DNA of 32,004 nucleotides from Escherichia coli (GTDB lineage: Bacteria; Pseudomonadota; Gammaproteobacteria; Enterobacterales; Enterobacteriaceae), in NCBI RefSeq assembly GCF_003334815.1, contig NZ_QOWO01000042.1. One strand, 5' to 3'. The number at the start of each line of letters is the position of its first letter. Within the stretch, counting starts at the first letter, position 1. The translations under genes were made by a program, and so were the position numbers. Shown one piece after another: positions 18,720 to 18,980 of the stretch. The notes below the pieces were generated by a model. It did not search any database. It saw only the letters and a list, made by a program, of their open reading frames with translations, and was not told the origin of the DNA.

Positions 18720-18789
18720 ATACAACTCCTCTGTGAATCGGTTTAGTCAGAAGAAGCAAAAAGACACTTTACCGAAGGGTTTAACATTT

Positions 18790-18862
18790 TTTCGTGATAC
18801 TCATCACCATGACGCAAATGCGTTGCATAAATTTACCCACCAAAAGTGATGCAAATCACATA
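18790..18862 (-). promoter_or_regulatory. udp promoter region with two CRP-type sites (CRP/CytR-regulated promoter)
   Basis: tcGTGAtactcaTCACc (~18792-18807) and aaGTGAtgcaaaTCACAt (~18844-18860) both fit TGTGA-N6-TCACA; a third weaker element aaTGTGAtttgttgcat sits nearer ysgA. Confidence 0.7.
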
Positions 18863-18980
18863 AATCACCCTTCATTCTGCAGGACTGCATAAAAGATGAG
18901 CCGATTCAGGCAATGTGATTTGTTGCATGCTGACTATAGTTAACATTGCGCAACATTTTTATAAGGGTACGGAGAATACC

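Follow-up and report, generated by a model that had tools for sequence, protein, structure and literature searches.

The short intergenic region between udp and ysgA in Escherichia coli contains CRP-like palindromes, which raises the question of which of the two diverging genes they serve and whether CytR acts there together with CRP. The region was analysed within a window, i.e., the whole stretch of 32,004 nucleotides taken from contig NZ_QOWO01000042.1 (assembly GCF_003334815.1). The results indicate, with a probability of roughly 0.95, that it is the known udp promoter, activated by CRP and repressed by CytR (class III type) and arranged back to back with the ysgA promoter.

Gene Arrangement of the udp/ysgA Locus

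The two genes diverge from an intergenic region at positions 18720-18980, which is 261 bp long with a G + C content of 39%. The coding sequences and start codons listed below are based on the open reading frame list and the RefSeq annotation, and the start codon of ysgA is also based on the alignment of related species.

17958-18719, minus strand, udp coding sequence (uridine phosphorylase)
18717-18719, minus strand, udp start codon
18726-18730, minus strand, udp Shine-Dalgarno sequence AGGAG, 95-100% conserved in 39 non-Escherichia species
18981-19796, plus strand, ysgA (= dlhH) coding sequence (dienelactone hydrolase family)
18981-18983, plus strand, ysgA/dlhH start codon
18971-18974, plus strand, ysgA Shine-Dalgarno sequence GGAG, in a region conserved in the alignment

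The sequence of E. coli K-12 MG1655 is 100% identical over a 901-bp stretch spanning the udp/ysgA control region, and each of the 5,426 complete E. coli genomes searched has a copy in which 80% or more of this stretch is covered. The search of positions 18500-19300 against Rfam returned no RNA family.

Sequence Evidence for Two CRP Sites

Two dyads resembling the CRP consensus were identified in the intergenic region.

18793-18808, centre 18800.5, CRP site 1 (proximal), CGTGATACTCATCACC, 13.0 bits, rank 2 in the window
18845-18860, centre 18852.5, CRP site 2 (distal), AGTGATGCAAATCACA, 16.9 bits, rank 1 in the window

The initial annotation, made from the sequence alone, had placed two good dyads at approximately 18792-18807 and 18844-18860; both proved to be real and lie within one base of those positions. 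Compared with TGTGA-N6-TCACA, site 1 has two mismatches and site 2 has one, and the distance between their centres is 52 bp.

The scores were obtained with a symmetric 16-bp matrix built from 104 ChIP-seq sites of the enterotoxigenic (ETEC) strain H10407 (PMC4287617), from which the two udp entries had been excluded. When approximately 32,000 positions of the 32-kb window were scanned, the two dyads took the first and second ranks, and the next best match reached 10.5 bits. Likewise, when the 261-bp intergenic sequence was shuffled 20,000 times with its dinucleotide composition preserved, 0.68% of the shuffles contained one site scoring 13 bits or more, and not a single one contained two. Counting the matches to TGTGA-N6-TCACA with at most two mismatches showed no enrichment in the whole window (6 matches, with 11.8 expected from shuffles); as this count is too blunt, it was replaced by the matrix scan.

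CRP Occupancy In Vivo

The published CRP ChIP-seq analysis of ETEC H10407 describes one peak, designated 'ysgA/udp', with two motifs only, GGTGATGAGTATCACG and TGTGATTTGAATCACT (PMC4287617). The former corresponds to site 1 and the latter to site 2, so that the motifs named under the peak are the same two sites that were recognised in the window. The site 2 entry TGTGATTTGAATCACT, present in H10407 (NC_017633.1), differs from the K-12 sequence TGTGATTTGCATCACT by a single change in the variable, non-contacted centre of the site. The variant was verified in the H10407 genome; it is therefore a genuine difference between strains rather than a misprint in the paper.

The tabulated centre of the ETEC peak falls within ysgA, 163-215 bp from the CRP sites. 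The peak centres given in Table 1 of PMC4287617 were found to lie 163-225 bp below the RefSeq positions of the motifs (an offset of about 190 bp) at all seven of the seven loci checked, namely udp/ysgA and, with shifts of +170 to +225 bp, cdd, galP, ppiA, deoC, nupG and malE. Because all of them are displaced in this way, the offset is systematic, and the peak sits on the pair of CRP sites. For the same reason, CRP binding nearer to a third, weaker dyad on the ysgA side, which had been considered on account of the peak centre inside ysgA, was rejected. Any reuse of this table needs correction for the systematic coordinate offset. For the udp/ysgA locus, no match was found in the supplementary data published with the Cappable-seq and Crp ChIP-exo studies.

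CytR Operator Between the CRP Sites

The natural CytR operator of udp has been published as the oligonucleotide 5'-GTAAATTTATGCAACGCATTTGCGTCATGGTG-3', which served in NMR experiments on the DNA-binding domain of CytR (bioRxiv 10.1101/2021.02.28.433298). This 32-mer matches the minus strand of the window exactly at positions 18805-18836, between the two dyads. According to the same source, the udp operator consists of two 8-bp half-sites that are 3 bp apart (bioRxiv 10.1101/2021.02.28.433298). The half-sites could thus be placed within the matching stretch, with octamer boundaries that we infer.

18811-18829, minus strand, CytR operator composed of TATGCAAC (18829-18822), the spacer GCA and TTTGCGTC (18818-18811)

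CytR operators are built from octamer repeats whose core is TGCAA/TTGCA. In the alignment of 39 non-Escherichia Enterobacteriaceae, conservation reaches 95-100% in the TGCAA core of the left half-site. The right half-site is poorly conserved beyond close relatives in the same alignment, which counts against the CRP/CytR interpretation.

A comparative genomics study lists udp among nine members of the CytR regulon established by experiment, and states that one CRP site takes part in the activation of udp and two in its repression (PMC3454398). It also gives the gap between the CRP boxes as 30-31 bp across Enterobacterales and Vibrionales (PMC3454398); for boxes of 22 bp, this gap is equal to the 52-bp centre spacing found here. 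Repression of udp by CytR and its relief by cytidine are stated in the literature. The CRP/CytR architecture that the initial annotation had attributed to udp is thus upheld by the identity with K-12, the exact operator match between the dyads, the published gap and the ETEC ChIP-seq data.

The description of the CRP1-CytO-CRP2 module of the udp promoter (udpP) is reportedly due to Brikun et al. 1996 and Gavigan et al. 1999. Two later papers cite this work on udpP (PMC3454398, PMC9422980).

Conservation Across Enterobacterales

The comparative set comprised one genome per species and was restricted to the best 80 udp loci, ranging from Escherichia to Yersinia, Serratia, Hafnia and Rahnella. 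Among these best 80 loci, the divergent neighbour of udp is ysgA in 78, and both CRP sites are present upstream of udp in all 80. The centres of the sites are 52 bp apart in 74 of these 80 loci and 53 bp apart in the remaining six, all from Yersinia. The usual scores in this set are 10-14 bits for the proximal site and 14-20 bits for the distal one, with three weaker distal sites.

Moreover, in the alignment of the 39 non-Escherichia Enterobacteriaceae, conservation amounts to 95-100% in the half-sites GTGA and TCAC, whereas the six bases between them are free to vary, which is the classic mark of a dyad contacted by protein. Other conserved elements in this alignment are the udp -10 hexamer TAAAGT, the Shine-Dalgarno sequence of udp and the beginning of its 5' UTR. 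The view that the dyads are functionless chance palindromes of an AT-rich intergenic region, which would agree with consensus matches being no commoner in the window than in shuffles, is refuted by their retention at fixed spacing in 80 of the 80 species examined and by the ChIP-seq occupancy, and given also the first two matrix ranks, the lack of any intergenic shuffle with two such sites and the published operator between the dyads, its probability is negligible.

Two further features were noted upstream of udp. The predicted udp 5' UTR is 80-100% conserved in the 39 species over roughly its first 15-18 nt (18743-18760, minus strand, TTTGCTTCTTCTGAC), i.e., as strongly as the CRP half-sites. 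At the equivalent place in Salmonella, a weak marbox-like motif, GCTTCTTCTGACAAA, was reported from MarA ChIP-seq (PMC10268841). In Y. artesiana, Y. aldovae and Rouxiella, the CRP pair is located 118-280 bp from the udp start codon, compared with about 80 bp usually; the longer distance in these three implies a leader insertion or another start-codon context.

The udp Promoter and the Proposed Mechanism

The udp promoter was recognised by its conserved -10 hexamer.

18766-18771, minus strand, udp -10 hexamer TAAAGT, 80-100% conserved across Enterobacteriaceae

From the position of this hexamer, the udp transcription start is predicted near 18759. With this start, the CRP centres would be at about -41.5 (site 1) and about -93.5 (site 2), both of these positions being predictions in the same way as the start itself. 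Positions -41.5 and -93.5 are among those preferred by CRP genome-wide (literature including PMC4287617). The scan of positions 18650-19050 for sigma-70 promoters and terminators revealed no full -35/-10 match and no terminator. The lack of a sigma-70 match fits activator-dependent promoters but carries no information in itself.

In the proposed mechanism, which follows the established model that the anatomy of the region fits, cAMP-CRP bound at site 1 (approximately -41.5) would activate RNA polymerase at a promoter with a usable -10 hexamer (TAAAGT) and no good -35 element, while a second CRP dimer would occupy site 2, centred at about -93.5. CytR would bind the weak operator TATGCAAC-GCA-TTTGCGTC, kept in place chiefly through strong protein contacts to the two CRP dimers, and its joining would turn the activator complex into a repressing one. 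Binding of cytidine to CytR would weaken the cooperativity, and activation by CRP would be restored. The sites, their spacing, the identity with published sequences and the conservation come from the present analysis; occupancy and the control by CytR and cytidine are taken from the literature.

As a point against the overall reading, RNA-seq and TSS data from the literature contain a transcript in the udp direction whose start lies inside ysgA, 431 nt upstream, which means that in the growth conditions used udp mRNA did not come from the CRP-dependent promoter alone. The start is placed at 19151 on the minus strand, 170 nt into the ysgA coding region (TSS 4014022+ of the Thomason data), and the operon given in the Conway data extends from 4014023 to 4015230, ending just beyond udp. 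The udp-direction RNA is antisense to the 5' end of ysgA and, according to published dsRNA data, gives rise to a dsRNA cluster at 19008-19159 that ranks among the 20 most abundant RNase III-cleaved clusters.

A -10 hexamer TACAAT (19153-19158, minus strand) occurs 7 nt upstream of the intragenic udp-direction start. E. coli and E. albertii share the first T of this hexamer, whereas that base is variable in the majority of the 18 other aligned genera, the prevailing forms there being CACAAT, GACAAT or NACGAT.

Comparison with Known Systems

The closest known system is the E. coli CRP1-CytO-CRP2 module of udpP, which is this very locus: the sequence, the operator oligonucleotide, the CRP boxes and the 30-31 bp gap are identical. 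The third dyad and the regulation of ysgA are not part of the published module. The control of udp by CRP and CytR is thus already known, and since the 1990s the module has served as a textbook example of how an activator and a repressor assemble cooperatively. As a discovery, the finding carries little weight; its main use is that of a positive control, in that a real and well-characterised regulatory module was recognised from raw sequence.

In E. coli, the promoter deoP2, which is the second member of a tandem pair, resembles udp in having CRP sites near -40 and -90 that are approximately 52-53 bp apart, with CytR between them sequestering CRP. The CytR half-sites are adjacent in deoP2 (0 bp), whereas those of udp are separated by 3 bp; across the regulon, this spacing ranges from 0 to 11 bp. 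The promoters of cdd, nupG, tsx, ppiA, rpoH and cytR also share with udp the CRP-dependent activation and the recruitment of CytR by CRP, with CytR in the role of an anti-activator. Activation involves both CRP sites at nupG, tsx and cdd but only one of the two at udp, and repression involves a single CRP site at the cytR promoter as opposed to two at udp. Regarding divergent genes, the ETEC ChIP-seq table assigns a single CRP peak to both members of pairs such as malE/malK, ascG/ascF and ppiA/tsgA, as it is for ysgA/udp. Unlike these shared-site pairs, ysgA is only a candidate user of the CRP site.

The ysgA Promoter

The proposal of the initial annotation that the ysgA promoter shares the intergenic region agrees with the presence of a conserved -10 hexamer.

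18935-18940, plus strand, ysgA -10 hexamer TATAGT, in the block CTATAGTTA, 70-90% conserved

The hexamer is a good one, and no -35 element is evident. The alignment also showed conservation of a TGCGC motif just downstream of it and of the Shine-Dalgarno region. The ysgA transcription start is predicted at 18947-18948. In Salmonella, a dlhH reporter fusion begins at -31 from the AUG (PMC5137417), a point that maps in the alignment to G18948; fusions of this kind presumably begin, as they usually would, at a mapped start. For E. coli, the 5' end of ysgA is bracketed to 18926-18955 by dsRNA and operon data from the literature.

Possible Use of CRP Site 2 by ysgA

Site 2 is located almost midway between the two predicted transcription starts (udp at approximately 18759, ysgA at approximately 18947), about 94 bp from each. 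It might therefore act in both directions, at -93.5 for udp and, as a distal activator of class I type, at about -94.5 for ysgA, making both genes responsive to cAMP-CRP. We regard this arrangement as possible, with odds that are clearly below even.

The geometry of the region argues for it. Among the 57 species with a recognisable ysgA -10 hexamer, the distance from the centre of site 2 to the first base of the hexamer is 82.5 bp in 32 and within 1 bp of this value in 44, although many of these species are close relatives and the counts are not independent. Between species, the 74-bp spacer is no more than about 42% identical, and the adjoining segment between the -10 hexamer and the Shine-Dalgarno sequence ranges from 25 to 45 nt. 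The divergent gene order in 78 of the best 80 loci, the common occurrence of CRP at -92.5/-93.5 genome-wide and a ysgA promoter with a good -10 hexamer and no evident -35 element point in the same direction.

The exact position of the site, however, speaks against its use by ysgA. Relative to the predicted ysgA start, site 2 lies at about -94.5 (±1), while the class I faces are -61.5, -72.5, -82.5 and -92.5/-93.5; a predicted position of -94.5 to -95.5 is thus 1-3 bp off the canonical face. Moreover, the outlying species deviate by -11, -9, -7, +6, +9 and +13 bp, which are not consistently whole helical turns. In the searchable literature, no expression, ChIP or mutational link of ysgA to CRP was found, and ysgA enters lists of CRP sites only through the intergenic region that it has in common with udp.

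It may tentatively be suggested that ysgA/dlhH belongs to the cAMP-CRP regulon, and possibly to the CytR regulon, through the shared site 2, in combination with an Escherichia-specific antisense transcript from within ysgA. If this is true, one gene of unknown function (ysgA/dlhH) would join the CRP regulon.

The Third Dyad and Other Features on the ysgA Side

The initial annotation had also noted a third, weaker dyad near ysgA, and this claim was not sustained.

18914-18929, third CRP-like match TGTGATTTGTTGCATG, left half-site TGTGA only, 5.3-6.1 bits, rank 27 in the window

That this match is a true CRP site regulating ysgA is very unlikely. Its left half-site TGTGA is perfect, the block GGCAaTGTGaTTTG around it shows moderate conservation in Enterobacteriaceae (40-70% over the dyad), and the match attains 7.6 bits in two other Escherichia lineages. 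However, the score of 5.3-6.1 bits, which varies with the background used, is close to 5.7 bits, the value that marks the 5th percentile of the bound sites behind the matrix, and a site of at least 5.5 bits was present in 35% of the 20,000 shuffled intergenic sequences, so the match is at chance level. It lacks the right half-site, and at the equivalent position at least 6 bits were reached in just three of 80 other species (S. enterica subsp. arizonae and the two Escherichia lineages just mentioned); as a CRP site, the match shows no conservation. Its centre, about -25 from the predicted ysgA start, falls inside the core promoter, which is no activating position for CRP, and the motif search on the ETEC ChIP-seq data gave two sites only. 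The third dyad is probably part of the upstream region of the ysgA promoter or an unassigned site, rather than a CRP site.

Upstream of the ysgA -10 hexamer lies the block TTCAGGCAATGTGATTTGTTG (18903-18925), whose conservation among Enterobacteriaceae is moderate, with the consensus GGCA[AC]TGTG[AG]TTTG. Neither a fit to a sigma-70 -35 element at normal spacing nor a matching regulator was found for this block. Sigma-54, sigma-E and sigma-32 elements were considered by eye and rejected, as the spacing or key bases did not fit.

Another weak CRP-like match of about 7 bits, TGTGGCGGGCTTCACC, was noted inside the ysgA coding region at 19064-19079. It occurs at the same place in Escherichia lineages only and is probably due to chance.

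At the RNA level, ysgA/dlhH is listed among the verified targets that GcvB, a small RNA, recognises through the R1 seed region (PMC9299463), and dlhH in Salmonella among those of the small RNA SdsR (PMC5137417). Codons 2-6 of ysgA (18984-18999, GCAACAACACAACAAT) are rich in C and A and, judging from their composition, would resemble a typical target of GcvB R1.
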